DNA of 63,958 bases, filler included, from Babesia bigemina (Eukaryota): assembly GCF_000981445.1 (NCBI RefSeq). It is 8 parts of 8 records of this genome, joined end to end, with 100 filler letters (N's around TTAATTAATTAA, not from the genome) between each part and the next. Parts side by side here need not be neighbours in the genome. Positions count along the whole stretch, not along the records: positions 1 to 9,561 come from NW_012237247.1; positions 9,662 to 18,950 come from NW_012237248.1; positions 19,051 to 27,657 come from NW_012237249.1; positions 27,758 to 35,228 come from NW_012237250.1; positions 35,329 to 42,953 come from NW_012237251.1; positions 43,054 to 50,908 come from NW_012237252.1; positions 51,009 to 61,735 come from NW_012237253.1; positions 61,836 to 63,958 come from NW_012237263.1. The stretch is one strand, 5' to 3'. The notes beneath the pieces were generated by a model, which saw only the letters and a list, made by a program, of their open reading frames with translations, had not been told where the DNA came from and made no database searches. How positions within the stretch are numbered: position 1 is the stretch's first letter; each line of letters opens with the position of its first letter. Below are positions 1-63,958 of the stretch, piece by piece. A program made the translations under genes and the position numbers.

Positions 1-1341
1 ACATCGCCCCTTTATCCACTCTACATCGCTCCCTTATCCACTCTACATCGCTCCTCTATCCACTCTACATCGCCCCTTATCCACCCTACATCGCCCCTTT
101 ACCCACTCCACATCGCCCCTTATCCACTCTACATCGCCCCTTTATCCACTCTACATCGCCGCTTAACCCACTCTACATCGCTCCTCTATCCACTCTACAT
201 CGGCCCTTAACCCACTCTACATCGCTCCCTTGTCCACTCCACATCGCTCCTTTATCCACTCTACATCGCCCCTTTACCCACTCCACATCGCCCCTTTACC
301 CACTCTACATCGCCCCTTAATCCACTCTACATCGCTCCCTAACCCACTCCACATCGCCCCTTTACCCACTCTACATCGCCCCTTTACCCACTCTACATCG
401 CCCCTTTACCCACTCTACATCGCCCCTTTATCCACTCTACATCGCTCCTTTATCCACTCTACATCGCTCCCTAACCCACTCTACATCGCTCCTTTACCCA
501 CCCTACATCGCTCCCTAATCCACTCTGCATCGCCCCTTTATCCACTCTACATCGCCCCTTAACCCACTCTACATCGCCCCTTTATCCACTCTACATCGCT
601 CCTTAACCCACTCCACATCGCCCCTTTATCCACCTTACATCGCCCCTTATCCACCCTACATCGCCCCTTTACCCACTCCACATCGCCCCTAATCCACTCT
701 ACATCGCTCCCTAACCCACTCCACATCGCTCCCTAATCCACTCTACATCGCTCCCTAATCCACTCCACATCGCTCCTTTATCCACTCTACGTCGCCCCTT
801 ATCCACTCTACATCGCTCCTTTATCCACTCTACATCGCTCCTTTATCCACCTTACATCGCCCCTTTATCCACTCTACATCGCTCCTTTACCCGCTCTACA
901 TCGCTCCCTAACCCACTCTACATCGCCCCTTAGTCTACTCTACATCGCCCCTTTACCCACTCCACATCGCCCCTTTATCCACTCTACATCGCTCCCTAAC
1001 CCACTCTACGTCGCCCCTTAACCCACTCTACATCGCTCCCTAACCCACTCTACATCGCTCCTTTACCCACTCCACATCGCCCCTTTACCCACTCCACATC
1101 GCCCCTTTATCCACTCTACATCGCCCCTTAACCCACTCTACATCGCTCCCTTATCCACTCTACATCGCTCCCTAACCCACTCTACATCGCTCCCTAACCC
1201 ACTCTACATCGCTCCCTAACCCACTCTACATCGCCCCTTAAACCACTCTACATCGCCCCTTAACCCACTCTACATCGCCCCTTAACCCACTCCACATCGC
1301 TCCCTTACCCACTCTACATCGCCCCTTAACCCACTCTACAT
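1..1341 (+). repeat. ~22-bp tandem satellite (CCACTCTACATCGCYCCTTWAY), C-rich on + strand, upstream of cassette
   Basis: About 60 imperfect tandem units read directly; last unit merges into the leader. Confidence 0.97.
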
Positions 1342-1431
1342 CCCTCGAATCACCTCGCCATATTACCGCTATGACCTCTTTAAACCACAATAAAAACTTG
1401 TGCCTTGTCCCCCTTCACCTCCCCTTCTGAC
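1342..1431 (+). promoter_or_regulatory. Conserved cassette leader (class A) with 19-codon uORF 1371-1430 (MTSLNHNKNLCLVPLHLPF*)
   Basis: CTCGAAT...ACCGCTATGACCTCT...AACTTGTGCCTTGTC motif precedes every cassette; regulatory role inferred. Confidence 0.6.
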
Positions 1432-4400
1432 TGAGTCCATCGACTGGTTGATCCAGGTTAGGTATGGGAATGGTGATGGTGGTGATGGTCTTGACCAGTT
1501 GTCTCAAGCTTTGAAAAAGTTGATTGAGGAGGCTATTGAGAAGGCTGAAAAGTCCCTCCAAGCCGAAAAAAATAAACTTGAATGCCCTGTTAAGTATAAG
1601 GGAAATGAGTCCACTTGCCAGTATTATGATAGGCTGATTAAGGAAGCCAAGGACGCTAAAAATTCTGTTCATCCTAAAACTCAAATTCCAATAACTGAAC
1701 TTGAAAAACAAAAACAACGCTGCCAAAATAACCACACTTATTACCGTGACGGTTCCAAGCAGAAAGCGTATGATGAAATTACTGAGCGTCAGAATCAACT
1801 TAAAGATCTGAAAGATAAGCTTACGAAATTCACTGATTCACTTGATAAAACTAATAATGAAAATCTCCTTACTAACCTCTGCACCGGCCTCGAGACTTTC
1901 CTCGGCTTCAACGCTGACTCCAAAGGCTACGACGGCAGTGGGATAGTGTACTCTGACCTTGACAGGCTGTGCGACGGGGTTATGGGATTTTTGAGTGGTG
2001 TGCTTAAGGCGGTGAAAAACGAAAATGAAGTGACAACTTATGATAATTACATCAGTGGAGAGAATAATAAGCTTGAAAGTGTACTTAACACCTTAAATAC
2101 TAATATTGGCTCCGGGCGTGCTGGGCTTGCCGTGTCTGTCGACGCGGTGAAGAGGTGGTTGGAGGGGTATGGGAAAAATCTCCGTACTTCAACTTATCTC
2201 GTAACTCATGAATTAGATGGACTGAAGGAATTCATATCAGGTAAGCATATTTATGGTATTCATGACGTGCAGAATCTTCAAGACCAATTGAAGACGTGGA
2301 CCGAAGTGGTCAAGAAGATAGATGAGCACGTTAAACAGAACATAATTTCTAATGTTGATAAATTAGATTATACATTGAAACGTAGTGTAATGAACAAAAT
2401 TGATCCGCTGCGTGCATCAATTAACCAGTTGCTTGATTCGGCTAAGGATCCTGCCGTTATCCAGCAGGTCAAGAAGGTAGATACAGAGTTGCAGGCACAA
2501 GAGTTGAAGATTAAGGACTCGTTAGGTAACGAGGTATATAAACTTCGTGACAGTTTGAAACTTATGAAAGACACCAAGAATAGGCAGATTTGGTATTTAA
2601 GAAAGTCTGTTAACGATTTCATGAAAATGATTGAAGATAACCATTTTAACAATACCTATAAGGACAATATAATCAGTCAATTCAATGACATAAAACGTAA
2701 GGTCAATGATGTTTATGATACATTGTTTGCAAAGCAAGCGCAGCTGAAGGGGTTGGTGGAGCAGGCCCAGCAACATTTTGCGATTATTACGAATACAATT
2801 GGCATGGACGCGAAAATCGGCCACGAAAAAAGCATTTATCGTAATTGGGATAAGCTCAGGGAGACCATTAGTAATCTGGTGTTGCGTCAGATATATGGGC
2901 AGAATAAACATGAAGGTCTCAGAGGGATTCTCAGTGGAGTAGGAAATTATGCCGACGGCTTCAAATGGCAGACGTTTGAAAAAATAATGCAGCAGTTGTT
3001 GCAAGAAATTGTTGAAAAGGATTCCGTATACACCAATATTGATGCGTATGTTAGGTATAACAAGAATAATTTTACGGGTGATCTGGGAGTCGGTGAAAAG
3101 ACGGAAGCAATCCTAAAAAAATTGACACCAATCATCATACAGAAAGCGAAAGATGCTATAAAAACGATCAAACCGTCTCGTACACTTGGAACCAGGGGGA
3201 GTGTAGATGGAGAAATATCGGAAATCATAAAGTATCTTGGTAAACTAACTAGTGATGTTGAAAATATGGAAAGCAATATAACACAGGCAATTGAAGAGGA
3301 ATTGGCATCGGGTTCGGAATTAAGTTACGTAAATGCCCATCAATCCGACCACAAACATTATCTCAGTAGCGCTATTAAGGAAACATTGTCTATTATCTCT
3401 ATGAGTGTTAAATACGTGTGCGCACAATTGGAAAATTTCAAGAATGCTTCCCGTATTTCCAACTTAGATCAGGCCATCAAAGATGTGACTGCTATACCGG
3501 GAAAGCTCTCTGACGATCCGTCACTTGGTCAAAATATCACCAACGGATTGAAGACTGTAACGAATCATATCGAAGAACTTAACAAATTTTTAGTCAAATC
3601 AACAGGTGACAATTCCATGCACGAGGCGATCGATGAACTGAAATCAAAGATGGTCGACGAACTTGATAAGCTCAAAAAAGATAAGGAAGGCCATCAAGGG
3701 CAAAACGGTATCATAAACGAAAATAAAGATAAAGCTGACGAGCAAATGGAGAAATTGAAAACCGAGCTTAAAAAGAAGCTTAACAGCTTTGATATCAACG
3801 TCACACATGCCGATACATTAATCGAAGACTCTATTGATAGCATCGTAAGGGTTTTAGATGACGCTCATGGTGTTATCGAACGAACCGTCACTGACGCTTT
3901 TGAGAAAGTTAGACAATCCGTCCGCGCCCTCTTCGCCGAGTCCCACCGCGCCGACCTCTCTGCCCTCCGCTCCCTCGTCGACCAGCAGCTGAAGGCGGTG
4001 CAAGGCATAATCGCGAAGGACAGGGTGACGGGCGTGAAGGGGATGCTTAAGACGCTGAGTGGTGTCTCCGTCAATATGAAATCCTCACAGTATGCAGATC
4101 AGAATAATATGCTCATGAAGCTGCAAACGGCTGCATCTAAGAAAAACAGTTTGACAAAAGCTTATTTTGATGAATTGGTTCAACTCGTCAGAGCGTACTA
4201 CCGTTCTTACTTAATTTATGTGCACGATGATGCTGTTAGATTATCCGCCTCCCACCCTTCTCCCTCCACCGACTACCCCTCTCAACTCAAGGCCATTTTC
4301 GACAAACTCGTCGAACTTCTTAATCACCTCGAAAAAGACAAGTTATATAACTACGACCATAATTTCGTTGATTTACTCGCCTCCCTCAACTCTCTTGTTG

Positions 4401-6802
4401 ACTCCCTCTCTCCCTCCTTCACCTCCCCCTGCCCCCTCCTCGCCCCCCTCAAGGCCGGCCTCGCCAAATTCACCGAGCAACTCGGCCACGCGTACGTGAG
4501 TAGGTACTCGGGGCAAAAATACACTGCGTTAACTGAACGAAAACAGGTTCCCGATCCTAAAAAACCTGACAGCAAAGAAAAAATTGACGTTACCGATTTA
4601 ACCCCTGAGGGCCGGAACTGCGCCAAGGTCTGCCTGACGATAGTGGAGATGTTGACCAAAAATTTTGTGGAGTTGAAAGATGAATGTCAAGTCTACAAAA
4701 GTAAGCAAATTAACACGTATGATGATAATTTATTTGGCGAATGTTTTACGAAACGTGGTTTCACGGTGACATCCGACAAGGGTAGGCAGCACGGCGAGTT
4801 ACAAGACAAGAGTGACATGACCGGCGATGCAGTTTATAAGAAGATAACGGCAAAAGTTACAGGCGTCCAGATGTTAACTTTCCTAAAAACATGGAAAGAA
4901 GAACAACGCAGAAAACATCCTCACAGGCATCCAAATGGTAACATTCACCTCTTCGACGTTCTTGACTTCCTGCAAGGTTACGTCGTCACATATTACACAG
5001 TCCGTCACCTGGAACATATTCCATCAGCTAAAGCACCGCGTAATATTTATCAAATGCTGCAATGGCTGAGCGGCGTTCGATATTATCCAAGTCTTATTCC
5101 CCTGTTCCTTTGCTTCAAGGATCTGTTTCCTAGACGTAAAGAAGACGAAGGAAAGGATATCAAGGCTATATCACCCGCTAGCGTAAAGCTCTCAGCAACA
5201 ACTGAAATCACGTATGCGCACTTAGGAAGAAAAGTGTTTGTGAATGTCTGTTTACACGCCCATGATGTCTTGGTTGCCATCCTGGGTCACGGTCACGCAG
5301 GTGGGCGATACGCTGTCGATTTCAAAACCAACGAAGCAAAGTTGTTGTATCCTAGTAAGGCGAGTGACTGTTTTGATATGCTCGTAGACATTGCGTATCG
5401 CGTGCAACACCAGCTGTATTTCCTCTTCCAACAGTTTTACTTCGAATCATCGTACAGCTCATGGCGCGACTGCCTCTATGGCAGGGGAGTGGCCGGGTCA
5501 TCGTGGAAGTGCAATACCAAGCAGTGCCCTAACCACGACTGCAACCAAACGGCTAGGCAAACGGCCAACCAAATGGGTAACCAAACGTGTGACCAACACT
5601 GTGACCAATATCCCATGTGCGACCTAAAATCACCTTTGCAGTCATTCTTGGAGGATGGCTTACAAGGCTTCTTACCACATCAATTTACCAAGCCGGGCTG
5701 CAAACTGGAATGCACGGCAGCCAATCACAAAGCTATTCCCTGTAAGACTCCCATGGGCTTCGGTGATATAAGTAATATGGCATCGCATACGCAGAAGGGT
5801 ACGCATCTCAGAGATGTTTTAATAGATTTCTGCGGGAATTCTACTGCTCCCCTTACACTGATGTGCGCTTATTTCAACTGCCTGTTACAGCGTCCTCCTC
5901 AGAATCTGGGTGATATGTTCGCGTTCTATTACAACCTAATGAAAGAGTGGAGTAAGAATGAGACGCATAAAAGAAAGGCATTTGACGAAGCTGTCAGGAA
6001 GGCCAATTTCGAAAATCGAGGTACAACGCTCGAACTGGATGATGTCTTCAGTGCGCACAGTAACATTAGCAGCAACCACGCTGGGAGGCATCTGTCTAGC
6101 CTGGTGAACTGCGACGGTGATAGTGGATCAAATTGCGGCCGGTATTTGAAGCCCATCAGCACCGACGTATATACTATTTATTCATCGGAATATGCTGATA
6201 AGTATGTCTCATGGATCGTCTACCTCACTGAAACATTCTATGACTTGCTTAAGAAATTATACGACGAATGTAACGGCAACTGCGGTCCGAAGGGATCCAA
6301 CTGCCACAACAAATGCTGTGTCAAAGGGTGTCCATCCCTCGTAAAAGAGTCGAAAAATGTGACCCATGATGAAGGATGCACGTCCATTGTCCAGTGCAAG
6401 CATACACTTCCAACCTTGTGCAGATATGGATTCACGTTCTGGTACCAGACGAGGATCAACGGCGAACAAGGCATAGAAAAAAAACGTACCTGCAAGGATT
6501 TGTGCAACGTGCTAGAGAGAGTGCTGAGTGACAAAGAAGCTGACCAAGCTCCACTCGCTAAACTAATCTACGTCACAATTCCTAACTTCCTCTTCGAAAT
6601 CCGCGCCCCCTTCATCTGGCTCAATGTCGCCCTCTGGCTCCTCTCTTTGTTGTACCTCCTCCACATCATGGTCATCCGCCTAGACCTGCTCCACATCAAA
6701 TCGCATCTACATAGTCCCTCGAGTCATCGCATAGCTGCTCAATCACTACTCTCCGCTGCACGTGTTAACAAGCTTAACAGAGTGTTTTACCTGCAACCAT
6801 AA
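1400..6802 (+). CDS. ves1: VESA/ves1-like variant surface antigen, 5'-defective cassette (GTG at ORF start; first in-frame ATG at 1982)
   Basis: 1800 open codons; ESIDWLIQV, GIVYSDLDRLCDGVMGF, Cys-rich C-domain, TM helix FIWLNVALWLLSLLYLLHIMVI, tail ending RVFYLQP. Confidence 0.85.
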   Translation: MPCPPSPPLLTESIDWLIQVRYGNGDGGDGLDQLSQALKKLIEEAIEKAEKSLQAEKNKLECPVKYKGNESTCQYYDRLIKEAKDAKNSVHPKTQIPITELEKQKQRCQNNHTYYRDGSKQKAYDEITERQNQLKDLKDKLTKFTDSLDKTNNENLLTNLCTGLETFLGFNADSKGYDGSGIVYSDLDRLCDGVMGFLSGVLKAVKNENEVTTYDNYISGENNKLESVLNTLNTNIGSGRAGLAVSVDAVKRWLEGYGKNLRTSTYLVTHELDGLKEFISGKHIYGIHDVQNLQDQLKTWTEVVKKIDEHVKQNIISNVDKLDYTLKRSVMNKIDPLRASINQLLDSAKDPAVIQQVKKVDTELQAQELKIKDSLGNEVYKLRDSLKLMKDTKNRQIWYLRKSVNDFMKMIEDNHFNNTYKDNIISQFNDIKRKVNDVYDTLFAKQAQLKGLVEQAQQHFAIITNTIGMDAKIGHEKSIYRNWDKLRETISNLVLRQIYGQNKHEGLRGILSGVGNYADGFKWQTFEKIMQQLLQEIVEKDSVYTNIDAYVRYNKNNFTGDLGVGEKTEAILKKLTPIIIQKAKDAIKTIKPSRTLGTRGSVDGEISEIIKYLGKLTSDVENMESNITQAIEEELASGSELSYVNAHQSDHKHYLSSAIKETLSIISMSVKYVCAQLENFKNASRISNLDQAIKDVTAIPGKLSDDPSLGQNITNGLKTVTNHIEELNKFLVKSTGDNSMHEAIDELKSKMVDELDKLKKDKEGHQGQNGIINENKDKADEQMEKLKTELKKKLNSFDINVTHADTLIEDSIDSIVRVLDDAHGVIERTVTDAFEKVRQSVRALFAESHRADLSALRSLVDQQLKAVQGIIAKDRVTGVKGMLKTLSGVSVNMKSSQYADQNNMLMKLQTAASKKNSLTKAYFDELVQLVRAYYRSYLIYVHDDAVRLSASHPSPSTDYPSQLKAIFDKLVELLNHLEKDKLYNYDHNFVDLLASLNSLVDSLSPSFTSPCPLLAPLKAGLAKFTEQLGHAYVSRYSGQKYTALTERKQVPDPKKPDSKEKIDVTDLTPEGRNCAKVCLTIVEMLTKNFVELKDECQVYKSKQINTYDDNLFGECFTKRGFTVTSDKGRQHGELQDKSDMTGDAVYKKITAKVTGVQMLTFLKTWKEEQRRKHPHRHPNGNIHLFDVLDFLQGYVVTYYTVRHLEHIPSAKAPRNIYQMLQWLSGVRYYPSLIPLFLCFKDLFPRRKEDEGKDIKAISPASVKLSATTEITYAHLGRKVFVNVCLHAHDVLVAILGHGHAGGRYAVDFKTNEAKLLYPSKASDCFDMLVDIAYRVQHQLYFLFQQFYFESSYSSWRDCLYGRGVAGSSWKCNTKQCPNHDCNQTARQTANQMGNQTCDQHCDQYPMCDLKSPLQSFLEDGLQGFLPHQFTKPGCKLECTAANHKAIPCKTPMGFGDISNMASHTQKGTHLRDVLIDFCGNSTAPLTLMCAYFNCLLQRPPQNLGDMFAFYYNLMKEWSKNETHKRKAFDEAVRKANFENRGTTLELDDVFSAHSNISSNHAGRHLSSLVNCDGDSGSNCGRYLKPISTDVYTIYSSEYADKYVSWIVYLTETFYDLLKKLYDECNGNCGPKGSNCHNKCCVKGCPSLVKESKNVTHDEGCTSIVQCKHTLPTLCRYGFTFWYQTRINGEQGIEKKRTCKDLCNVLERVLSDKEADQAPLAKLIYVTIPNFLFEIRAPFIWLNVALWLLSLLYLLHIMVIRLDLLHIKSHLHSPSSHRIAAQSLLSAARVNKLNRVFYLQP

Positions 6803-6925
6803 TCGTACTCACGTGTTTACTACCTACACTCACCTAGCATCACCTACTCACCTAACTTATGAATTGTGCTTTAATCTGTTGCATCACTCATTAATCATTG
6901 TATGTGATTGTGTAACAGTTAACTA
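6803..6925 (+). promoter_or_regulatory. Conserved ~125-bp 3' element after cassette stop (putative 3' UTR)
   Basis: TCGTACTCACGTG...CACCTACTCACCTAAC...AGTTAACTAA follows all 7 cassette stops. Confidence 0.7.
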
Positions 6926-7146
6926 AAGTGGTGACCAAGATGCTGCCCAAAGTGTTGACCAATGTTATGACCAAAGTGCTGACCAAGGTGCTGCCCAAAG
7001 TGTTGACCAAGGTGCTGACCAATGTGCTGACCAAGGTGCTGCCCAAAGTGTTGACCAATCTGCTGACCAATGTGCTGACCAATGCCATGACCAAGCACCT
7101 GACCAATGTGCTGACCAATGCCATGACCAAGCACCTGACCAAGGTG
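6925..7146 (+). repeat. 12-bp tandem satellite (GTGCTGACCAAN)
   Basis: Direct reading. Confidence 0.95.
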
Positions 7147-7228
7147 ATGGTCACGGCAGCGATGACATGGTTACGGCAGCGATGGCATGGTCACGGCAGC
7201 GATGGCATGGTTACGGCAGCGATGACAG
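7147..7228 (+). repeat. 20-bp tandem satellite (GGTYACGGCAGCGATGACAT), ~4 units
   Basis: Direct reading. Confidence 0.93.
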
Positions 7229-7249
7229 TGGTGACTTAAGTTGCATTTA

Positions 7250-7400
7250 TTATCCACTCTACATCGCTCCTTTATCCACTCTACATCGCCCCTTAATCCA
7301 CTCTACATCGCTCCCTAACCCACTCTACATCGCCCCTTTACCCACTCTACATCGCTCCTTTATCCACTCTACATCGCTCCCTAATCCACTCCACATCGCT
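7250..7400 (+). repeat. ~22-bp satellite, short (~7 units)
   Basis: Direct reading. Confidence 0.95.
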
Positions 7401-7590
7401 CGAATTCCCTCGCCTTAATACCGCTATGACCTCTATAAACCATAGCAATAACTTGTGCCTTGTCACCCTTCACTTCCCTTCTTCCACCTCTTGCCACTGC
7501 CAAGTCCCATCATGTTCAGCCTAACTCCAAATCTCTCGAATTACTTCGTCTTATTAACGCTATGACCTTCTTGAACCATCATAATAACTT
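7397..7590 (+). promoter_or_regulatory. Cassette leader (class B, core motif duplicated; ATGs at 7426 and 7562)
   Basis: Two copies of CTCGAATT...GCTATGACC...ATAACTTG, 136 nt apart. Confidence 0.6.
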
Positions 7591-7635
7591 GTTGATACTG
7601 ACCATTCTCTTACTGACGCTGCTACTAAGAAAGCC

Positions 7636-9561
7636 TTGCAGGACATTGACTCCAAGTTGAAACAGGTTGAAAATCTTAAAAAGAGTCTTGAAGGATTGAC
7701 TGAAAATGACAATTGTAAAAACCTTCTAAACAATCTTTGTGACGGCCTCGAAAAATTCCTAGGCTTCCACCCTTCTTCCAAAGGCTACGATGGCCAGGGC
7801 ATCGTCTACTCTGACCTTGACAGGCTGTGTGACGGGGTGATGGGATTTTTGTTTGAAATAATTAGTGAAGTAAATAACAACGAAAATCTTAAGAAATACA
7901 ATACTGAATTACCTAAAACACTTAATAAAATTAAACAAGCGCTATATAATGGTAGAGAGAAATTCAACACCCATATGCCCCTTGTCAGTCAAGGTGTTGC
8001 GAGGTGGTTGAAAGAGGTGAATGAAAAACATCAAAGTGTGATTACACCTCTAGAACATTTACTACGCTTAGTCAATAATCACATGTCAATTGATATGAGT
8101 GCAATCATTGTTACAGAACAGTTGCATAATTGGCAAGGCTTTTCCAGTCTCTACGTTGAAAAAATTATAGAAGCTGAAAAAGCTCTACATAATGTTGACG
8201 AAAATTTAGAAATTAAATTGGCACCTAAACTAGACTTGATAAAACAGGTGGCACAAAATTTTTGGTCATCCGTTATTGACCGATCCGTGACAAATTCTGT
8301 AGAGACGCTGTACAATAAGTTAACCAGCATTCCGCAAACCCTCACTAAACGTATATCTGCTAAAACACAAACCGTGCAAAGCACTCTCAATGTAAAGTTT
8401 GATAAGATCGCAGCAAATATTGAGAATTTTAAAAAAATAAAAAACAGTCAAATTCAGTCAATCAACAGTGCTGTGTCGGCAGCCAATCAACACATTGTCG
8501 AACTGATTGGTGATTCCCAAAACGGTTTCGATACGAATTATAAGAATCAGATATCCAAAAGATTCACTGCTCTGCGGAATGAAATTGAACGTTTCGTAAA
8601 GAAAGATTCCGGTAACACGACTGAGCTTCTGAAGCAATTCGAAATGGTCACCAATGGCATCCGAGAGCTGCAAGTAAACGTTCAAGGGGATTTACAAAAG
8701 CTGAAAAATGACATTACTGCACTTGCCGACACAGTATACAGTGATGATCGTAACCCGCTTGTTAACGATGCGTTGACCCAGCTTAAAAACGACATGGAAA
8801 CACTTAGGAATACGACAGCAGCAATCACAGCCAAGTCTGACAGTTTGCAGCGTCAATATACAGAGTCGTGCAAGGAGACAATTGATATATTTGCGAATCA
8901 GTACGGCAAATTGAGAGAGTCCATTTACGGTCCGGGATCTAAGTCAGTCACCGACATCAAGAAGGGCTCCATCGCTCATCTTGTCACTGAACTTATTGAT
9001 GCTATTGGTGCCGTGGATGTCGGGATACTAGATAGCGCCGTCACCAAATTCCACGGTGATGTTACACAGAGGATAAAAGATGCGGCAGATAAGGCTGTTG
9101 AAAAGGCAGCTGATCAATTTAAAATGAAAGGTGACGGTGAAGCTCAGATAGACGTGACATCCATAATGGTTCTATTTGATGGCGCCAAAACGGCGCTTGA
9201 TCAAGCCGCTTCTTCGGTAAATGTACAACTTGAGGCTCTGAAAGAAGTGCCCGGCGTCGTCGAAGAATCTCGACAGGGTGCTGATACACTGATGGATAAG
9301 CTAAAAGGTGAGCTTGATGTGCTTCAATATCAAATTAAGGCAATAGAGGAGCCTGTGAACGCTGCCAATGCAGTCTTAGATGCTGCAATATCACAGCTAC
9401 CAACATCTTTACAAGATGCTCAAAGTACCGCCAACGTTACTATGTCCTTGCTCAGAAGTGATCTTCAAGCGACAACAAATAAAGCCTTCAACGACTTGGA
9501 AGAGCACGTCCAGAAAATGTTTGCCGAGCAAAAAAAAGCAGAGTTGCGTGCTGTCTACACA
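7636..9561 (+). CDS. ves1: ves1-like cassette, 5'-defective, 3' end lost in gap (frame open from 7588)
   Basis: NLCDGLEKFLGF and GIVYSDLDRLCDGVMGF motifs; N-terminal domain similar to 44061-49886. Confidence 0.8.
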
Positions 9562-10550: not shown

Positions 10551-10900
10551 ACCATGTCATCGCTGCCGTGACCATGTCATCGCTGCCGTGACCAAGACAT
10601 CGCTGCCGTGACCAAGACATCGCTGCTGTGTCCATGTCATCGCTGCCGTGACCATATCATCGCTGCCGTAACCATGTCATCGCTGTCGTAACCATCAACT
10701 GTCATCGCTGCCGTGTCCATGTCATCGCTGTAGTAACCATGTCATCGCTGCCGTGTCCATGTCATCGCTGCCGTGTCCATGTCATCGCTGCCGTGACCAT
10801 GTCACCGCTGCCGTGACCATGTCACCGCTGCCGTAACCATGTCATCGCTGCCGTGTCCATGTCATCGCTGCCGTGTCCATGTCATCGCTGCCGTGACCAT
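10551..10900 (-). repeat. 20-bp satellite
   Basis: CCATGTCATCGCTGCCGTGA tandem units. Confidence 0.95.
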
Positions 10901-42277: not shown

Positions 42278-42299
42278 TGGTGACCAAAGTGATGATGAT

Positions 42300-43678: not shown

Positions 43679-43681
43679 CAA

Positions 43682-53476: not shown

Positions 53477-56400
53477 ATGAGGCATGTCCCTAAGAAATTA
53501 ACGGACTGTCCGGAGAATCTCCGTGAGTCCATAGACTGGTTGATCCAGGTTAGGTATGGGAATGGTGGAGATGGTCTTACCAAGTTGTCAAAAGCTTTGA
53601 AAAAGTTGATTGAGGAAGCTATAAATAACGCTACTAAGTCCCTTACAACCGAAAAATCTAAACTTGAATGCCCCTTCAAATACTCTGATAAGGAGACTTA
53701 CTGTCAGTACTACCAGAGACTGCATGACGAGGCTGAGAAAAAATTCAAAGAATCCAAAAAAACCGTTGAAAATATCCCAGATAATCATAGTATTAACTTC
53801 TATAAAACATGTCTAGAAGATTGTAAAAATGCTCACAAAAAACATCCTCCATCTCCTGCCTTGAAGTCTGTTGAAGAGAAGATTGTCCAGCTTGGTGAAT
53901 TGGCTGGTAAGCTTGGAGGATTTGTTGGTGAGAGTGAGAGTGTTAAGAAAGCCGTTGTGAAAGCTATTAAAGCTTGTTTCGACACTAATCCACACCTTAA
54001 AAAAGACCTAAATGATGTTTACTCTTCTTATGTTACTAAGCTTTCTGAGTCTGTCAAGTCTGATGGCCAGGCTGATGACAACCAGAAAATTAGTGAGCTT
54101 AGTGAAGCAGTTAAGAAAGAAATTACTCTAATTACTCAACGTATTAATAGCCTTAATAACCCTCTTAATCCCTCTCCTTCTTCCCCCTCTGCCTCTGCTG
54201 AGTCAGCCAAATTGCAGTCCAAGTTGGAGGCTTTGAAGAAAGTGGAGAAGCTTTGTGGATTTTATGAGAATTCTAATAATCAACAAAATGAGCCTAAAAA
54301 TCTCTTAGATAATTTATGTGACGGCCTTCAGACTTTCCTCGGCTTCAACTCTGCTTCCAAAGGCTACGATGGCAGTGGCATTGTGTACTCTGACTTGGAT
54401 AGGCTGAGTGACGGGGTGATGGCGTTTTTCTATGGTGTTCTCAGTAACATCAAAGAGCATTTAGGGCAGCATAAAAACATTTTAGATAATGCAATTAGCA
54501 TTCTTAACACCAATAAACACCTTGGTAAAAAAGGTTTTAATGCTGCGATTGGACAGGTGGTTGAAGGGGTGCGGGGGTATAATGATGCTGTCATGAAGTC
54601 TAATAATAACGTTAAAAATGTAGTCGAAGAATTGTACAATTACATAAAAAAAGACGCAGCGTTTGAAAACGAATTTGTTAAAATTCAAGTTGATAATGTG
54701 ACTGGGAAGCCAGATGACGCTGAGGTAAGAAAGGCAGAGAACTTAGTGACTCAATGCCTAAAAAATGCCAATAAATTTAACGAAGCTTTAGATGTCAGTA
54801 CGAAAAAAGAAATTAAAAAATCAATCGACGACTTAAATCCTAAGTTACGCGATAATGTAAATAACGTTCGTGAGTCCGTTAAAATTGAAACTGAGCGTCT
54901 TACAGAGTTCTCGTCGAAAGAAAAATCAGACCTTCGAGAGACAACGGAATACATCAGTGAGCTGTTGAAAAACCTGAAAGTGAACGTCGATTGCAAAATT
55001 GACGCGCACATTAAAGACCTCATTAGGAGGATTCGCGAGAAAGTCCAGACTATTTTGGATGAGCTGAACAAAATCAACAAAGACTTTTGGCAGTACGTGA
55101 ACGAGTTGGGAACGTGGATAAAGGATGCCGAGCCGTTCGTGGATGACGCGTTGAGGAAGATTGAGATCATTTTGCGGCAAGTGAGTTCGGACGGCGCCGA
55201 TCAGAGGCCCAGACTTATCAACGAGACAGCGGAATTGATTAGAATGCAGGCTCAGATAATTCACGGTGACGTGGAATTGGCCAGAGAAAGAATGGAAAAG
55301 TTAGTGCCGGAGGCAACGAAAAAAGTTGAGCAGTTGACTACGTGGAAGAATGCGGGCACGACGGCCGTTGAGAGGGCGAAACAAAAGTGTGAGCAGATTG
55401 GTGGGATGGTTGAGACTGAAAATGGTACAAAAGATAAGATTCATGGAATCGCTAACGATATGAAAGATAAGGCTGAGAATCTTAGAAAGGCGGCGCATAA
55501 GGTTAAGAGTGGTATTGACGGTTGGGTGCAGCAGGCTACGCGGAAAATTGGGGAGTTGGAGGAGTGGATTAAAAAAGAGCTTTTTAAAGTAAAAAACAAC
55601 ATTCAGGTATCCATTAAAGATTTTGTCACTAATCAGGTTAAGTCTGTAGTCAACGCAGCAAAGCACGTTACGGGTCCGGTGACACTTAACACAAATGGTG
55701 ACACTAGGCCCGGAATCACGCAGCTTATTAATGAAGTTGGACAAACAACGCAGTTCGGAAAATTATTTAAACTGCTTGAACGATCTGCAGATGACAAAGA
55801 TAACATTGCATTCTCCATTGAATACGCCATGTATGCTCTCAATAAATTAAACAGCAAGACGTCGATCGAATTGGATGACAAAAATCCGGTTGTGAAAGCT
55901 TTGACGGACGATCTCGTCGGCCTACTGAATGTGCATTTGCATGATGCAATTACGAGGCGTGCAACTACAAACTCACAGACGGAGTCACAAATTAACTTGA
56001 ATGATACGATGAGTGGATACAACCGAGAAAAAGGCAAAGTAACAATGGAGCTAACCGGTCTCAAACGTAACGTTGAAACCAATCTAACCGCTGAAGAAAG
56101 TGTCAAACAAACGATCGAAGATAACAATAGCTTCACCGGCCCCTTCACCAAAATCGAGCAACAACTCCAAAAGATCGCAGGGCTGGTTGACAGCGACAAA
56201 CCTACGCCGGGATTAGTTGATCCTAAAACTGGCGTCAAAAACTACCTGGATGATATCACAACCCTGCTTGGCAAAGCTCCCGTCGTACTCACCTCCGATA
56301 TAAAAGGCGACCACAATGGTGTCCAAGGCCTCGAGAAGATCAAGGAAGAAATCGACGGCGCGCTCGGAGGTATTCAAACTAAAGTAACGGATGCTCTACA

Positions 56401-59400
56401 AGGCGTCAACCAAGCATACGCCGATCTGCAATCCCACTCCTATACCATCACTTCCAGACTCACCGAGCTGTGTTCCGCCATCAAGTCAGCTGCCGAGCTG
56501 GATCCTGATAGTGCGAAAAAAAAATTAACTGAGTTGAAGGAGAAGTATTTCGAGGAACAAACGAAAACTAGCAAACATGCGGACAAAAGCATCAAAAAGA
56601 TTCGCGACCAACTGAAAGCGCTCCAAAACTTTCTGCAGAGTGGTCCCATCACCAAGGCCGACAGCGTGATTGCATTCCTTTCTACTGCCGAAAAAAGCTT
56701 CAAGAAGGAACTGACGGAAGAGATCGACAAGGACATCAAACAGGTCACCGAGAAACTAATCACCCATTCGCGCAAGCAATACGTCACGTCTCTTATGGAC
56801 TTGCTGACCACTTTCGCCGACAGAGTTTCCTCTGAGCTGGCGGAGCTGCCAACCCAAATCGGCGCGGACCTGGAACAGGGGCACAAAAAATTCATGAACT
56901 TATTTGAAACTAACATCGTTACTGAAGTTAAGAAGATCCTTCCTATCAATACCGATCACAGAGGCAAGAATGAGTTCCCGCTGAACAAGGCGGCAAGCAT
57001 ATTTAAACAGGGTTTAACAAGTTTCTTCAAAACTTTGAAAGAGCTACCAGACTTCAAGTCCGACTTCAACTTTATTCGACCTCCATACAGCACGCTGGTA
57101 AAATTGCTTACCGGAATCATTAGTTCCCTTCACTTCAACGACGACTTCATCGTGAACTTGGATGCACTGAGAGACCAGCTGAGTAAGTTTCATCCTGCCA
57201 AGTTCGGGGAGGGACAGAATCATTTCATTCTAGAAGCGCTGAGGAAAGCGTTTTCTAATTATGCTGAGGAGCTGTCCAAGGCCTACATCTCCGCCTACGA
57301 CGGCGCTGGCAATATCAACTGGGATCAAGAAAACAACCCGGAGACCACATACTGCGCTAAGATATTCTTGACCGCTTTTTCCACAATTCACGATGCTGTG
57401 CATGACTTGAGAATAAATTGCAATAGTCTGAAGGGACATCAAATTCACTCGACCTCTGATCTCGGCAGGTTGTTCCTACGGCACGGCTTCAGAGTATCAC
57501 ACGGCGACAAACAGCACTGGGAGCTGCAGAACAAGCAGATCATTAACGGTGAATACGTCCTTAAGAGAATCAGTTTCAGGGTCGATGGTGCGAAAGAGAA
57601 CGAGCATCTCAAGGAGTGTGAATCGAATGAACGAAAGACGAACTATTTTTTTAATCTTTTCGATATTCTCACCTGCCTTCTGTATCACATTGAGAAGTAC
57701 AACGAGGTTTGCCATATTGGCACTTTTGATGCAAAGAGACAGCCATGTTCAGTATATGAGATGCTGATTTGGCTCAGCGGCCTGACTCACAACCGCGTGC
57801 AGTCCGCCATGGTCGGACAAACGTTCCTTGAGCTACTGAAAGATCCAGCGAAGGAGGCTAGAGAGGCGCAACAAGAAGAGGAAGTGGACGAACCTATAGT
57901 CCTAGAAGTGGACCCAGCATCTATATCCCTCGAAGCATACCCGAAGAACATAGAATTTGTCAGACTTGACGCGACACTGACACGTATATGTTCAAAAGCG
58001 TACGATCTTATTTGCACAATCGTTGGACCGGGAGACGAATACACTACCTACGGGTGTGACTACTCCAACAATTCGTTCAAGCTGAAGTATCCCAGTGACC
58101 CTGCCGCTTGCTTCGACATGCTCGTCGATATACTTCGCCGACTACTTCCGCAGCTCAGATATCTTTTTAACCGCTGTTATGTCGATGCCGAAAACCACGG
58201 TTGGCGCGACTGCGAATACGGTCGAACCACACGTACGACCAAATGGCCGTGCAAGGAGCACTCAAAGAGCAAACCAACGTGCCAGGCAACGTGTCAACCA
58301 AATGACCAACCAAAGTGCCAACCAACTTCCCCCCTAATGAGCTATTTGAACGATTGCTTGCCTGGCCACTTGCCTCATCAATTGAGCTCTATTGGTTGCA
58401 AATACGAATGTTTGACATGCCCTTCCACTTCGAAGTTTGGAATGCCTTGTATGACGCCCTTGGGATTTAGGGCGTTCTCCGGATCGACTAAAACGGGTCG
58501 TGATATATGTGAAATACTCCGGCAATTTTTCGGTACTGGCCGACTCTCATCTTTCCTTTGCCTTGTTCCTACGCCGCCGAAAACTCTACCAGAGCACTTC
58601 AACTTCGCTCTATCGCTCGTACGAGAATGGGAAGCTATCGCTACACGCTGGTATGAAAAGCCTATCGAACAATCGATTGAGACAGTTTCTATCGGTCTCT
58701 TTAGAAATCCCCGTGAGCTGACAGATGCACTTCGTTATGTTTATGGCAGCAGCCAAAATAACCATGGCGCTTTTCACCCAAATCCCTCGTCGGCTGATGT
58801 GTCAAGTTTGTCGATGCGGAAGGTATGTACTGGTATAGAGGAGCACTGTGCTCCATATATCGAAACTCTTTGTTCGGATTCATACGCTTACTTACCTTAC
58901 AAGCATTCCGACACGTACTTGTCCTGGGCTGTATATCTCCCATGGACATTCTGGCAATTACTTAACAATTTGTATAACGCTTTCTGTAATATTAATTGCC
59001 AAGACTGGGGCTGTCGTGAATGTTTGAAAGGCGACAAGTGTAAACGTGGACAACATGGTCTTTTCAAATTGGTTGAAAAAACCAAGCAACCTCACTGCCA
59101 GTGTTCGTCTATCGTCAGTTGCAATGGTGTGTCTCCAACTTTGTATCAATATGGATTTAGTTTCGGTGATGTATCTATGTTGAATAACAATAGCAGCAGG
59201 AAAACCTGTTCCGATTTCTGCACTCAATTAAAGAGAGTGCTTGACTGCAGTTATTTCAAGACATTGTTTACAAAATGCGACGAATTCATCTTCACCATCA
59301 GAGAGCCGTTTATATGGCTTAACGTCGCGCTCTGGTCACTATCTCTCTTCTACCTCATCTGCGTCATGGTTGGCAGACTGGATGTGCTGCACATCCGGTC

Positions 59401-59500
59401 ACACCTGAGGATACCGTCATCGCACAAGATAACGGCGCAATCATTGTTGGCGGCGGCGCAAGTCGGAAGGCTTGCCAAGATATCGTACCTACAGCCGTAA
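53477..59500 (+). CDS. ves1: Full-length VESA/ves1-like variant surface antigen (2007 aa from ATG)
   Basis: AAAATG start; MRHVPKKLTDCPENLRESIDWLIQV N-terminus; SDLDRL motif; Cys-rich domain; TM helix; tail KISYLQP. Confidence 0.92.
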   Translation: MRHVPKKLTDCPENLRESIDWLIQVRYGNGGDGLTKLSKALKKLIEEAINNATKSLTTEKSKLECPFKYSDKETYCQYYQRLHDEAEKKFKESKKTVENIPDNHSINFYKTCLEDCKNAHKKHPPSPALKSVEEKIVQLGELAGKLGGFVGESESVKKAVVKAIKACFDTNPHLKKDLNDVYSSYVTKLSESVKSDGQADDNQKISELSEAVKKEITLITQRINSLNNPLNPSPSSPSASAESAKLQSKLEALKKVEKLCGFYENSNNQQNEPKNLLDNLCDGLQTFLGFNSASKGYDGSGIVYSDLDRLSDGVMAFFYGVLSNIKEHLGQHKNILDNAISILNTNKHLGKKGFNAAIGQVVEGVRGYNDAVMKSNNNVKNVVEELYNYIKKDAAFENEFVKIQVDNVTGKPDDAEVRKAENLVTQCLKNANKFNEALDVSTKKEIKKSIDDLNPKLRDNVNNVRESVKIETERLTEFSSKEKSDLRETTEYISELLKNLKVNVDCKIDAHIKDLIRRIREKVQTILDELNKINKDFWQYVNELGTWIKDAEPFVDDALRKIEIILRQVSSDGADQRPRLINETAELIRMQAQIIHGDVELARERMEKLVPEATKKVEQLTTWKNAGTTAVERAKQKCEQIGGMVETENGTKDKIHGIANDMKDKAENLRKAAHKVKSGIDGWVQQATRKIGELEEWIKKELFKVKNNIQVSIKDFVTNQVKSVVNAAKHVTGPVTLNTNGDTRPGITQLINEVGQTTQFGKLFKLLERSADDKDNIAFSIEYAMYALNKLNSKTSIELDDKNPVVKALTDDLVGLLNVHLHDAITRRATTNSQTESQINLNDTMSGYNREKGKVTMELTGLKRNVETNLTAEESVKQTIEDNNSFTGPFTKIEQQLQKIAGLVDSDKPTPGLVDPKTGVKNYLDDITTLLGKAPVVLTSDIKGDHNGVQGLEKIKEEIDGALGGIQTKVTDALQGVNQAYADLQSHSYTITSRLTELCSAIKSAAELDPDSAKKKLTELKEKYFEEQTKTSKHADKSIKKIRDQLKALQNFLQSGPITKADSVIAFLSTAEKSFKKELTEEIDKDIKQVTEKLITHSRKQYVTSLMDLLTTFADRVSSELAELPTQIGADLEQGHKKFMNLFETNIVTEVKKILPINTDHRGKNEFPLNKAASIFKQGLTSFFKTLKELPDFKSDFNFIRPPYSTLVKLLTGIISSLHFNDDFIVNLDALRDQLSKFHPAKFGEGQNHFILEALRKAFSNYAEELSKAYISAYDGAGNINWDQENNPETTYCAKIFLTAFSTIHDAVHDLRINCNSLKGHQIHSTSDLGRLFLRHGFRVSHGDKQHWELQNKQIINGEYVLKRISFRVDGAKENEHLKECESNERKTNYFFNLFDILTCLLYHIEKYNEVCHIGTFDAKRQPCSVYEMLIWLSGLTHNRVQSAMVGQTFLELLKDPAKEAREAQQEEEVDEPIVLEVDPASISLEAYPKNIEFVRLDATLTRICSKAYDLICTIVGPGDEYTTYGCDYSNNSFKLKYPSDPAACFDMLVDILRRLLPQLRYLFNRCYVDAENHGWRDCEYGRTTRTTKWPCKEHSKSKPTCQATCQPNDQPKCQPTSPLMSYLNDCLPGHLPHQLSSIGCKYECLTCPSTSKFGMPCMTPLGFRAFSGSTKTGRDICEILRQFFGTGRLSSFLCLVPTPPKTLPEHFNFALSLVREWEAIATRWYEKPIEQSIETVSIGLFRNPRELTDALRYVYGSSQNNHGAFHPNPSSADVSSLSMRKVCTGIEEHCAPYIETLCSDSYAYLPYKHSDTYLSWAVYLPWTFWQLLNNLYNAFCNINCQDWGCRECLKGDKCKRGQHGLFKLVEKTKQPHCQCSSIVSCNGVSPTLYQYGFSFGDVSMLNNNSSRKTCSDFCTQLKRVLDCSYFKTLFTKCDEFIFTIREPFIWLNVALWSLSLFYLICVMVGRLDVLHIRSHLRIPSSHKITAQSLLAAAQVGRLAKISYLQP

Positions 59501-59667
59501 TTGTATTCACACTTCTAATTCACAGCAACTCACGTAACAACTCACCTACTCACCTAACAAACAAACGTAGTCTAATGTCTCGAATTACTCTAGCGGCAAC
59601 CTGTGAAATAAATAGCAGCTAAATTAGGAGATGACTAAACGACAATGCAACGTGTTAACCTAGCAGT

Positions 59668-59785
59668 CAGGCAAAGTGATAAGCTAGCGCCCAGGCAAAG
59701 TGCTGAGCTAGCAACCAGGCAAAGTGCTAAGCTAGCACGCAGGCAAAGTGCTAAGGTAGCACACAAGCTAAGTGCTAAGGTAGCG
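59668..59785 (+). repeat. 24-bp tandem repeat x5 (CAGGCAAAGTGCTAAGCTAGCACG)
   Basis: Direct reading; 8-aa periodicity in ORF 59635-59817. Confidence 0.85.
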
Positions 59786-60292: not shown

Positions 60293-60990
60293 TTGATGAG
60301 GGGACTGGGAGCGGCAGTGGTAGTGTTGCAGTTGGTGAGTGCTGCTTGAGTGATTGATGTTCGCAGGCTGAGGGGAGTGGGAGCGGCAGTGGTACGTGTT
60401 GCAGTTGGTGAGTGCTGCTTGAGTGACTGATATGTCTGCAGGTTGAGGGGACTGGGAGCGGCAGTGGTACGTGTTGCAGTTGGTGAGTGCTGCTTGAGTG
60501 ACTGATATGTCTGCAGGTTGAGGGGACTGGGAGCGGCAGTGGAACGTGTTGCAGTTGGTGAGTGCTTGCATAGGTGATTGATATGTTTGCAGGTTGAGTG
60601 ACTGGGAGCGACAGTGGTGCGTGTCGCAGTTGGTGAGTGCTTGCTTGAGTGATTGATATGTCTGCAGGTTGAGGGGACTGGGAGCGGCAGTGGTAGTGTT
60701 GCAGTTGGTGAGTGCTGCTTAGGTTATTGATATGTTTGCAGGTTGAGGGGACTGGGAGCGGCAGTGGTACGTGTTGCAGTTGGTGAGTGCTGCTTAGGTG
60801 AGTGATATGTTCGCAGGTTGAGGGGACTGGGAGCGGCAGTGGTACGTGTTGCAGTTGGTGAGTGCGTTGCTTGAGTGATTGATATATTCGCCGGTTGAGG
60901 GGACTGGGAGCGGCAGTGGTAGTGTTGCAGTTGGTGAGTGCTTGCTAGGTGATTGATATGCTTGCAGGTTGAGGGGAGTGGGCGCGGCAG
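60293..60990 (+). repeat. ~75-bp tandem repeat, 9-10 units
   Basis: GACTGGGAGCGGCAGTGG recurs at e.g. 60450 and 60525; 25-aa periodicity in ORF 60002-60571. Confidence 0.93.
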
Positions 60991-61260
60991 CGATGACAGG
61001 GGACTCAGCAGCGATGACATGGTCACGGCAGCGATGACATGGTCACGGCAGCGATGACTGGTTACGGCAGCGATGACAGGGGACTCAGCAGCGATGATAT
61101 GGTCACGGCAGCGATGACATGGACACGGCAGCGATGACATGGTCACGGCAGCGATGACATGGTCACGGCAGCGAGGACATGGTTAAGGCAGCGATGACAT
61201 CAACACGGCAGCGGTGACATCAACACGGCAGCGATGACATGGTCACGGCAGCGATGACAG
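60984..61260 (+). repeat. 20-bp satellite
   Basis: Direct reading. Confidence 0.94.
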
Positions 61261-61280
61261 TGACACAAGTGGTGATTATT

Positions 61281-61735
61281 ACCCACTCCACATCGCTCCT
61301 TAACCCACTCTACATCGCTCCCTAACCCACTCTACATCGCCCCTTTATCCACTCTGCATCGCCCCTTTATCCACTCTGCATCGCCTTTTTATCCACTCTG
61401 CATCGCTCCCTTATCCACTCTACATCGCTCCCTAACCCACTCTACATCGCTCCCTAACCCACTCCACATCGCCCCTTAATCCACTCTACATCGCCCCTTT
61501 ATCCACTCTACATCGCTCCTTTATCCACTCTACATCGCCCCTTTATCCACTCTACATCGCCCCTTTACCCACTCTACACCGCTCCTTATCCACTCTACAT
61601 CGCCCCTTTATCCACTCTACATCGCCCCTTAACACACTCCACATCGCCCCTTCACCCACTCCACATCGCCCCTTTATCCACTCTACATCGCTCCCTTATC
61701 CACTCCACATCGCTCCTTACTCCACTCTACATCGC
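61281..61735 (+). repeat. ~22-bp satellite
   Basis: Direct reading. Confidence 0.96.
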
Positions 61736-61835: not shown

Positions 61836-63162
61836 CCAGATCAACATTTTTTTCGGCATCATCTATTAGATTCTCCGCCTGCTCCATCCATTTGCGTAAT
61901 GATTCGATATGGTCCCGAAACCTAGTGCCAAGGCTCTCCAGCTGACCGAGAATCTCTCTCACTGATTTTTTCAATTGCTCCACAAGATCCTTTATATGCT
62001 TATCAATTGTCGTATGTAAACGCTTCTTAAGCTCATCTATCTCTGCATATAAAAAATCTTTCGTCGCCGTTAACTCCTCACGTTCCTTCTTAGACAGCTC
62101 AGTGAGACGCTTAGTCTCATGCTCTATCGTCACACGTACATTTTCGATCTTTTCACGTAAGCTACTATTAAGATCATTAATCGCGTTTCTATTATCAATG
62201 GAATTTGTGTTAATATCTAAATCATTTGTGAAGCTCTCAGCATATTCCCAGCACTCACCCAACCTCTCTTTAACCGCCAGTTCTGCTTGTCCTATTTGCT
62301 TGGAATTACCTGCAACAGCATTAACTATAGTTATTTCACTCACCTTATTTTCAAGCTGCTGCATATTGCTCTGCATTGTAGTTACAATGCTTCTAACTCT
62401 ATTGTTAGACTGCTGCACTTCCCTGTTATACTCCGCGATGCCAGCAGGCAACACGGTGAAAAGCTTCTTAAAACCCTCGTGCCCTGAGCAAAGATGTTTG
62501 TTAATTTCATCACTTACCGAATTTAATGTATTTTTACCGACATTGTATGTCTGAGTGTTTTTCACCGCCTCAAGCACACCACTCAAAAACGCCATCACCC
62601 CGTCGCACAGCCTATCAAGGTCAGAGTACACAATCCCAGTGCCGGTGTAGCCTTTGGTAGCAGAGTTGAAGCCGAGGAATTTTTCGAGGCCGGAACAGAG
62701 GTTCTCTAAAAGGTCTTTACAATTGTTTTTTTCAGTCAATCCAGTAAGACTCTCTTTGAGCTTTTTAACCTGCTCCAACTTGGAGTCAATGTCCTGCAAA
62801 GCTTTCTTAGTAGCATCGTCATAACGACGGGAGTGGGAATCGGAGCATGATTTTACAGCAGTTTTATATAGCTCTAAATTTGACGCATTATTAGATTTCT
62901 GGTTATTTTCAGGTTTTTCAGCTTCCTTAATCAGCTTACCAAAATACTGGCAAGTGGACTCATTTCCCTTATACTTAACAGGGCATTCAAGTTTATCTTT
63001 TTCGGCTTGGAGGGACTTTTCAGCCTTCTCAATAGCCTCCTCAATCAACTTTTTCAAAGCTTGAGACAACTTGGTAAGCCCTTCATCACCTTGACCATTC
63101 CCATACCTAACCTGGATCAACCAGTCGATGGACTCAGTCAGAAGGTGAGGGAAGGGTGACAA
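61836..63162 (-). CDS. ves1: 5' part of ves1-like cassette (class A junction), 3' end lost in gap
   Basis: LLTESIDWLIQVRYGNG...GIVYSDLDRLCDGVMAF; first ~75 aa nearly identical to the 1400 copy. Confidence 0.82.
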
Positions 63163-63226
63163 GGCACAAGTTATTATTGTGGTCTAAAGAGGTCATAGCG
63201 GTATTATGGCAAGGTGATTCAAGGGA
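63138..63226 (-). promoter_or_regulatory. Cassette leader (class A) with uORF MTSLDHNNNLCLVTLPSPSD*
   Basis: Homologous to 1342-1431. Confidence 0.6.
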
Positions 63227-63958
63227 TGTAGAGTGGATAAAGGGGCGATGTAGAGTGGATAAAAGGGCGATGTGGAGTGGATAAAGGGGCGATGAAGGGT
63301 GGGTAAAGGGGCGATGTAGAGTGGATAAAGGAGCGATGTAGAGTGGGTTAAGGAGCGATGTAGAGTGGGTTAAGGGGCGATGTGGAGTGGGTTAAGGGGC
63401 GATGTAGAGTGGATAAAACAGCGATGTAGAGTGGATAAAGGAGCGATGTAGAGTGGGTTAGGGAGCGATGTGGAGTGGGTAAAGGGGCGATGTAGAGTGG
63501 GTTAGGGAGCGATGTGGAGTGGTTTAAGGGGCGATGTAGAGTGGATAAAGGAGCGATGTAGAGTGGGTTAAGGGGCGATGTGGAGTGGATAAGGGAGCGA
63601 TGTAGAGTGGATTAAGGGGCGATGTAGAGTGGGTTAAGGAGCGATGTAGAGTGGGTTAAGGAGCGATGTAGAGTGGGTTAAGGAGCGATGTAGAGTGGAT
63701 AAAGGGGCGATATAGAGTGGGTTAAGGAGCGATGTAGAGTGGGTTAGGGAGCGATGTAGAGTGGATTAGGGAGCGATGTAGAGTGGTTAAAGGGGCGATG
63801 TAGGGTGGATAAGGGAGCGATGTAGAGTGGATTAGGGAGCGATGTAGAGTGGGTAAAGGGGCGATGTAGAGTGCGTTAAGGAGCGATGTAGAGTGGGTTA
63901 GGGAGCGATGTAGAGTGGGTTAAGGCGCGATGTAGAGTGGATAAAGGGGCGATGTAGA
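63226..63958 (-). repeat. ~22-bp satellite
   Basis: Direct reading. Confidence 0.96.

Follow-up and report, generated by a model that had tools for sequence, protein, structure and literature searches.

Start-less ves1b copies between satellite spacers in Babesia bigemina: a likely archive of gene conversion donors

Background

The donors of the VSG system of Trypanosoma brucei, held in a large subtelomeric tandem archive, have a 70-bp repeat in common with the expression site. The msg-I genes of Pneumocystis are subtelomeric, nearly full-length and start-less, and point to the telomere; a head gives promoter and start, with a single-copy upstream conserved sequence (UCS) and one 33-bp conserved recombination junction element (CRJE), mosaics occur, and the expression site resists assembly (PMC5676039). 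In the bacterial systems pilS (Neisseria) and vlhA (Mycoplasma synoviae), silent copies, which in pilS lack promoter and ribosome site and are sometimes in tandem, convert one intact gene (PMC4534519), and in Borrelia vls contiguous silent cassettes, about 90% identical to the central vlsE, undergo segmental conversion (PMC11499132). Closer to the present case, ves1 genes are progressively converted from silent copies at the locus of active transcription (LAT) of Babesia bovis, where the donors are largely complete head-to-head pairs, switchable in situ, and truncated ves1 genes have already been proposed as functional pseudogene donors (PMC6630957, PMC2034396). For the cattle parasite Babesia bigemina, PMC4066756 reports 80 ves1b genes, an orthology of 0-3% at conserved positions when strains are compared, frequent mosaics, and gaps in the assembly which are mostly subtelomeric. 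How this species varies its red-cell antigens without B. bovis-style paired loci is considered here on a stretch of 63,958 bases (the window), composed of eight B. bigemina contigs (2.1-10.7 kb) which carry one complete ves1b-type gene and a series of related cassettes devoid of the native start.

The reading that we favour is that the start-less ves1b copies, placed between fixed satellites, are likely a silent donor archive, whose sequence is likely transferred to complete ves1b genes by gene conversion; the likeliest regular recipients are those of the type found at 53477-59500.

Results

Cassette layout and identity of the genes

The contigs are connected by seven artificial N44-12-N44 joins, across which order and orientation have no meaning. 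The start-less cassettes are named c1 to c8 and the complete gene at 53477-59500 is named H.

Nine cassette 5' ends are visible, four on the plus strand (c1 at 1394, c1b at 7588, c4 at 29271, c5 at 36766) and five on the minus strand (c2 at 17651, c3a at about 19090, c3 at 25471, c6 at 49934, c8 at 63183), and at each of them a 22-mer satellite is followed by a leader and then by the open reading frame (ORF). At all seven visible cassette 3' ends the ORF is followed by an element of about 125 bp, a 12-mer and a 20-mer satellite; the 22-mer comes next at five, and the other two contigs terminate within the 20-mer. The initial annotation had claimed this polarised order, which is confirmed, along with a head-to-tail arrangement within contigs, which holds with coding DNA on both sides at three junctions only (c1 > c1b, c3c > c3, c3 > c3a). 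The three satellites together occupy 14,230 of the 63,958 bases. A 32-nt motif of the leader is found 13 times in the window (nine first and four second copies), against none in 100 shuffles. The leader, whose variant differs cassette by cassette, enters the ves sequence at three positions, in H numbering: at residue 17, where it meets the motif ESIDWL (c1, c8), near residue 128 (c1b, c2, c3a, c6) or near residue 270 (c3, c4, c5). The features, by position and strand, are the following.

1-1342 (+) 22-mer satellite ahead of c1, C-rich on the ves coding strand
1343-1431 (+) leader of c1, joining ves at ESIDWL (residue 17 of H)
1394-6802 (+) cassette c1, 1,802 open codons without native start, first Met at codon 197
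6803-7401 (+) complete spacer c1 > c1b: 125-bp element 6803-6925, 12-mer 6925-7146, 20-mer 7147-7232, 22-mer 7250-7401
7401-9561 (+) doubled leader and cassette c1b, ORF from 7588, cut at contig end
9662-11714 (-) 3' spacer of c2: 125-bp element, 12-mer 10919-11590, 20-mer 10551-10900, 22-mer 9662-10531
11715-17834 (-) cassette c2, 1,978 open codons from 17651, doubled leader, entry near residue 128 of H
17834-18947 (-) 22-mer satellite ahead of c2
19051-19282 (-) doubled leader and first codons of c3a, cut at contig end
19284-19996 (-) complete spacer c3 > c3a
19997-25522 (-) cassette c3 with leader, 1,824 open codons from 25471, entry near residue 270 of H
25526-26924 (-) complete spacer c3c > c3
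26925-27657 (-) 3' end of cassette c3c, 243 codons
27758-29120 (+) 22-mer satellite ahead of c4
29120-34544 (+) cassette c4, preceded by its leader, open for 1,757 codons from 29271
34545-35228 (+) 3' spacer of c4: 125-bp element, 12-mer, 20-mer up to contig end
35329-36615 (+) 20-mer > 22-mer ahead of c5
36615-41475 (+) cassette c5, preceded by its leader, open for 1,569 codons from 36766
41476-42951 (+) 3' spacer of c5: 125-bp element, 12-mer, 20-mer, 22-mer
43054-44060 (-) 3' spacer of c6: 125-bp element, 12-mer, 20-mer up to contig end
44061-50121 (-) cassette c6, doubled leader, 1,957 open codons from 49934
50121-50908 (-) 22-mer satellite ahead of c6
51009-53476 (+) non-repetitive region upstream of H, presumed promoter and 5' untranslated region (UTR); no satellite, no ves-like ORF
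53477-59500 (+) H, complete ves1b-type gene, 2,007 amino acids, native start, C-terminal membrane helix
59647-60990 (+) 24-mer (59647-59784) and 75-mer (60297-60990) repeats, in the window only behind H
60985-61735 (+) 20-mer > 22-mer behind H, in cassette-leading polarity
61836-63958 (-) 22-mer, leader and 5' part of c8, with the ESIDWL junction as in c1

The long ORFs of the window encode Babesia ves1b-type proteins, a family whose display on the red cell surface is presumed in PMC4066756. Among the matches listed, H finds its best ones in models of B. bigemina and B. ovata; BBBOND_0303890 (model P0027) aligns to H with an E-value of 3.8e-298, its tag carries the label BbigVes1b in a table of PMC4066756, and the B. 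bigemina ves1b genes of that paper belong to the same protein family as those of the window. The public B. bigemina model P0104, which begins inside the leader, aligns to c6 across 1,942 amino acids. A single membrane helix with a short tail is indicated by a hydropathy peak, 39-44 residues before the end, in H and in all seven cassette C-termini. The Pfam family VESA was matched neither by the nine window proteins nor by the ves1b-labelled P0027 and P0084; Pfam matches were limited to coiled coils, all below threshold.

Some further traits of the leader and spacers were recorded. Leader entry points other than the three listed are seen in the public models P0074 and P0094, and at loose ends at 1401 and 1423. 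The 12-mer satellite (6925-7146) resembles four-codon repeats found within ves ORFs (5542-5587, 45329-45396, 58263-58325), a likeness which suggests that coding sequence of ves genes may have given rise to the spacer. The 22-mer (e.g. 27758-29120) is C-rich on the coding strand, and its CCCTAA cores resemble telomeric repeats; for cassettes that read away from the end, its polarity is that of the telomere C-strand. A G-quadruplex role for this satellite was rejected, since its 53 motifs compare with 56 ± 5 in 200 base shuffles and composition suffices. The 3' elements of the neighbours c3 and c3c (19875-19996, 26803-26924) are identical, those of the other cassettes being different, which suggests local homogenisation.

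Start loss and coding constraint

The native start motif occurs once in the window, at 53495 within H, in line with the initial annotation, which had placed the only native start at 53477-59500. Eight cassettes were checked and in none is the leader ATG open into the ves frame; their first in-frame Met lies 51-202 codons inside the open frame, preceded by 2-13 other ATGs. The six complete cassettes are all stop-free over 1,569-1,978 codons, so that the uninterrupted frames reported at the outset stand while their maximum, then put at about 1,960 codons, is corrected to 1,978. Pairwise amino acid identity among the six is 33-42%, and over the last 550 codons the ratio of non-synonymous to synonymous substitution (dN/dS) is 0.15-0.45 (19 of 21 pairs computable).

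Open frames are also kept upstream of the first usable Met: the 180-188 codons preceding it in frame are stop-free in the pairs c1/c8 and c2/c6, with neutral chances of 0.008 and 0.03, respectively, and the conserved block directly before it has a dN/dS of 0.13-0.42 (4 pairs). Such sequence could enter a protein only via the start of another gene.

Start-less and complete models in public genomes

Public models were collected by three homologue searches seeded on window proteins (best 120 of 169, best 120 of 392 and 58 of 58 matches), with the addition of one cluster member. The 160 B. bigemina models obtained are a biased sample and no census, and some of the start-less ones are contig-edge fragments, 20 models beginning downstream of the conserved block. 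Thirty-two models have a native start (29 chromosomal, 3 unplaced) and 128 do not (17 chromosomal, 111 unplaced). Besides H, the native-start models off the chromosomes are P0210 and P0211. Two models starting at an internal Met are c4 and c5 themselves, which ties this type of model to the leader architecture.

According to the coordinates available in the supplement of PMC4066756, start-less-type models are arrayed at six chromosome ends, one array covering at least 142 kb. Of the 28 chromosome-end models with published coordinates, 27 are directed away from the sequence end and the remaining one is a native-start gene; 11 are start-less by name, two more by accession order and size, and the rest are presumed to be so. 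The large start-less archive in polarised arrays postulated from the window is supported by these models. Those chromosome-end models which were looked up are 'hypothetical' or 'undefined' in the protein table of the same paper. At the inner end of one chromosome-end array, the native-start gene BBBOND_0300080 (P0084) is placed tail-to-tail with the array.

In B. ovata, 26 of the 27 native-start models listed are located on one 3.7-Mb contig, where none of the 51 others is found. Two start-less models join at SIDWL, one runs through a repeat of low complexity beforehand, and in seven a pair of tandem copies is fused. These models show the same split between native-start and start-less copies as in B. 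bigemina. P0228, on a 48-kb contig, is the one listed native-start model of this species that lies elsewhere, and a candidate counterpart of H.

Tracts shared by start-less and complete copies

Shared tracts were defined by windows of 40 amino acids at 90% identity or more, a gene being scored as positive with at least two such windows. The exchange of sequence with complete genes proposed in the initial annotation is seen in 4 of the 32 complete genes, which share tracts with a start-less copy (for example P0032, residues 1281-1760, with P0125, and P0055 with P0005). The longest cassette-shared tracts are located outside H, in P0032, P0055 and P0063, all three of them interstitial. Start-less copies also share at least two near-identical windows among themselves in 97 of 129 cases.

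The complete gene H

Neither tandem repeats nor the 22-mer were found in the 2.47 kb upstream of H (51009-53476). The 22-mer therefore cannot be the upstream homology there, and the analogy with the VSG 70-bp repeats, drawn from the tandem archive with a repeat ahead of each donor, fails. A search for a head-to-head partner across a short bidirectional promoter, as in the B. bovis LAT, was made with ves1b queries (ves1a left out) up to the contig end at 51009; it gave no ves1b-like match with E below 0.007 and no 120-codon ORF in frame as a partner, and no ves-like remnant was found upstream or downstream of H within its contig. One other DNA run contains an H-type upstream region joined to the start, with 76 differences in 667 bases (about 89% identity).

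Behind H lie its own 24-mer and 75-mer repeats, followed by the shared 20-mer > 22-mer with the usual linker. The 12-mer is missing and only a 17-nt core is in common with the 125-bp element. Given that chromosome-end models read away from the end, and that the spacer behind H leads into cassettes elsewhere and has the same polarity, a place for H at the telomere side of an array would be expected. The C-terminal type of H is common to many start-less models, and the 24-mer and 75-mer repeats could either mark heads or follow that type.

H was initially taken for a single full-length head gene, a view abandoned in the light of the 32 native-start models. Two of these, H and P0211, have the start MRHVP. 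Their first 26 residues are identical, reaching 10 residues past the 5'-most cassette entry, and their bodies are about 23% identical. Other related complete pairs share their bodies (P0096/P0210 in 27 of 32 windows, P0229/P0235 in 25 of 34), whereas H and P0211 share none. The first 270 residues of P0211 contain exact matches of 16-34 residues to c1, c8 and c5, those of 21 and 34 residues being to c1 and c5. If both derive from one source assembly, H and P0211 could represent two states of one site, or two sites. In a tree built on 66 N-terminal columns, few enough to leave the bootstrap unsettled, H falls into one group (92/86, unstarred) together with c1, c8 and a pair of start-less models, and 13 interstitial genes are set apart (98/89, starred).

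The best match of the C-terminal third of c5 among 392 proteins is H (62%; 58006-59558 against 39981-41529), and c5 is in turn the best match of residues 1680-1920, approximately, of H. Residues 1-350 of H are modelled as all-helical (pLDDT 76, pTM 0.70), a fold without PDB match at E <= 0.001 and uninformative on mechanism.

Published expression data

In PMC4066756, the proteome of one strain was searched against the models of another. Two interstitial genes, BBBOND_0303890 and 0305310, are named there as encoding co-dominant proteins, and 18 rows labelled ves1b have 2-8 peptides each, numbers comparable to those of start-less models. The search space, of about 4,460 proteins (366 being 8.2%), fits the set of 4,457 genes, not the later count of 5,079; the search therefore likely could not reach genes located on unplaced contigs. 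Peptides assigned to start-less models fit independent expression and, equally, a few expressed mosaics whose peptides scatter over donor models. Among RNA data sets none was listed with the H region, a result without bearing on expression.

Discussion

Proposed mechanism and evidence against it

In the favoured reading, the arrays would act as silent donors, and conversion would deliver new segments into complete genes. Pairing would occur via homology of the coding sequences (ESIDWL, the block at about residues 128-315, the C-terminus), not via the upstream satellite. The satellites would mainly drive array turnover and exchange among cassettes, and perhaps silencing, and the 20-mer > 22-mer behind H could give downstream homology. 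We infer the silence of the cassettes, a transfer directed from them to the complete genes, and the role of H.

Several observations weigh against this scheme. No tract shared with a start-less copy is seen in 28 of the 32 complete genes, and cassettes are as patchwork-like as heads; with patchwork equal in both, mosaicism gives no direction of transfer. H has 4 of 38 windows at 90% or more to a start-less copy and P0211 has 0 of 24, compared with 1,193 of 4,794 (25%) for start-less copies among themselves; residues 350-1250, approximately, of H are without close match among the models listed, and at the DNA level H agrees exactly with a window cassette over 50 nt at most. The whole pre-Met segments, with dN/dS of 0.96 (c1/c8) and 0.71 (c2/c6), are not under purifying selection, and among 127 public start-less models there are 10 whose annotated frame is open from the leader ATG. 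In PMC4066756 between 1 and 6 peptides are assigned to each of at least 11 start-less models at chromosome ends, and up to 12 to their unclassified neighbours. Finally, there are about 30 complete genes in interstitial position, to which all 13 classifiable rows, of the 18 ves1b-labelled expressed ones, belong as native-start genes.

A more specific form of the donor reading is put forward tentatively. In both B. bigemina and B. ovata, a dedicated expression site might exist, in which a telomere-side MRHVP head is rewritten from well over 100 start-less cassettes, stored at most chromosome ends in arrays with satellite spacers; H and P0211 would be two states or copies of it. If true, such a system would be unknown in Apicomplexa so far.

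Alternative explanations

The archive might be real and H ordinary, the recipients being the approximately 30 interstitial complete ves1b genes, subject to in situ switching and segmental conversion as at the B. bovis LAT, with H and P0211 as two more copies. The location of the three largest cassette-shared tracts, and that of the genes for the co-dominant proteins, are in keeping with this, as is the number of near-identical windows, which is lower in H than in the median cassette. On the other hand, 25 of the 29 chromosomal complete genes are without such a tract (three have one, P0216 being counted apart), most interstitial genes have an N-terminus of a type unlike that of the cassettes, and the genes on unplaced contigs were likely outside the published search. 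We regard this explanation as rather unlikely, although it is the strongest competitor.

Expression of the cassettes on their own, as N-terminally shortened antigens started from the leader ATG, a spliced leader or a conserved internal Met, is given a lower probability still. It would account for the very long intact frames with an intact membrane anchor (6 of 6), for the peptides matching start-less models, for the identical spacing in the 10 models open from the leader ATG and, if the conserved 125-bp 3' element is a 3' UTR, for that as well. It fits poorly with the closed leader ATG of all eight window cassettes, with one leader joined at three coding positions in the window, and with a coding constraint which sits upstream of the internal Met. 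As to the peptides, they belong to a different strain searched against these models, and shared or converted segments would yield the same pattern.

That the arrays are a mere by-product, made of 5'-truncated duplicates spread by unequal crossing-over between satellites and without donor role, seems improbable. Heavy exchange among start-less copies and a highly variable satellite copy number would be expected in that case, but the six complete cassettes keep about 10,900 codons without stop or frameshift at near-saturated silent sites, and B. ovata has the same split. An assembly artefact from collapsed repeats can hardly explain the start-less 5' ends, for although 11 of 16 contig ends lie within satellite, the leader variants are cassette-specific, and DNA contigs of two other, independent runs contain the passage from satellite to leader and that from leader to the residue-17 ESIDWL junction, so that the satellite-leader joint is not peculiar to the present assembly.

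Comparison with described systems

In logic, the closest systems appear to be Pneumocystis msg-I, pilS and vlhA, although the layout described here departs from each in its specific traits. With msg-I it has in common subtelomeric, near-full-length, start-less genes, mosaics, and the need for a head as the source of promoter and start; unlike msg-I, there are at least three entry points, with only two of nine cassettes joining at ESIDWL, 32 native-start models are listed, two of them with MRHVP, and the arrays point away from the chromosome end (27 of 28). The pilS and vlhA systems, in turn, have one intact recipient and much shorter donors, and satellite spacers do not figure in the descriptions consulted in PMC4534519. 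Borrelia vls resembles the window in its contiguous cassettes, but in the present case identity is 33-42% and the 3' end is retained in full. As to B. bovis, its LAT also draws on silent copies, but in B. bigemina most copies are start-less and head-to-tail, with one leader and spacer in common. The mosaics recorded here, compared with the progressive conversion of B. bovis, are static ones.

The leader, the satellites and the start-less class are apparently undescribed in the literature searched, although figures, supplements or subscription journals could hold this layout; in the available text of PMC4066756 none of the three is mentioned (the strings 'truncat' and 'start codon' are absent). 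If the favoured reading is true, most of the ves1b repertoire is a structured donor library, which public annotation presents as ordinary hypothetical genes beginning in the leader or internally. Gene counts and expression studies would then need redoing, and a eukaryotic design of the msg or pilS kind would be added to Apicomplexa, in at least two species. The upstream region and start of H provide a unique anchor for following switching by polymerase chain reaction and sequencing. Babesia caballi has the related family ves1c, for which the available text of PMC10463595 describes no start-less class or spacer; one near-telomere gene accounts there for 38% of the ves1c reads, as a telomere-side head would.

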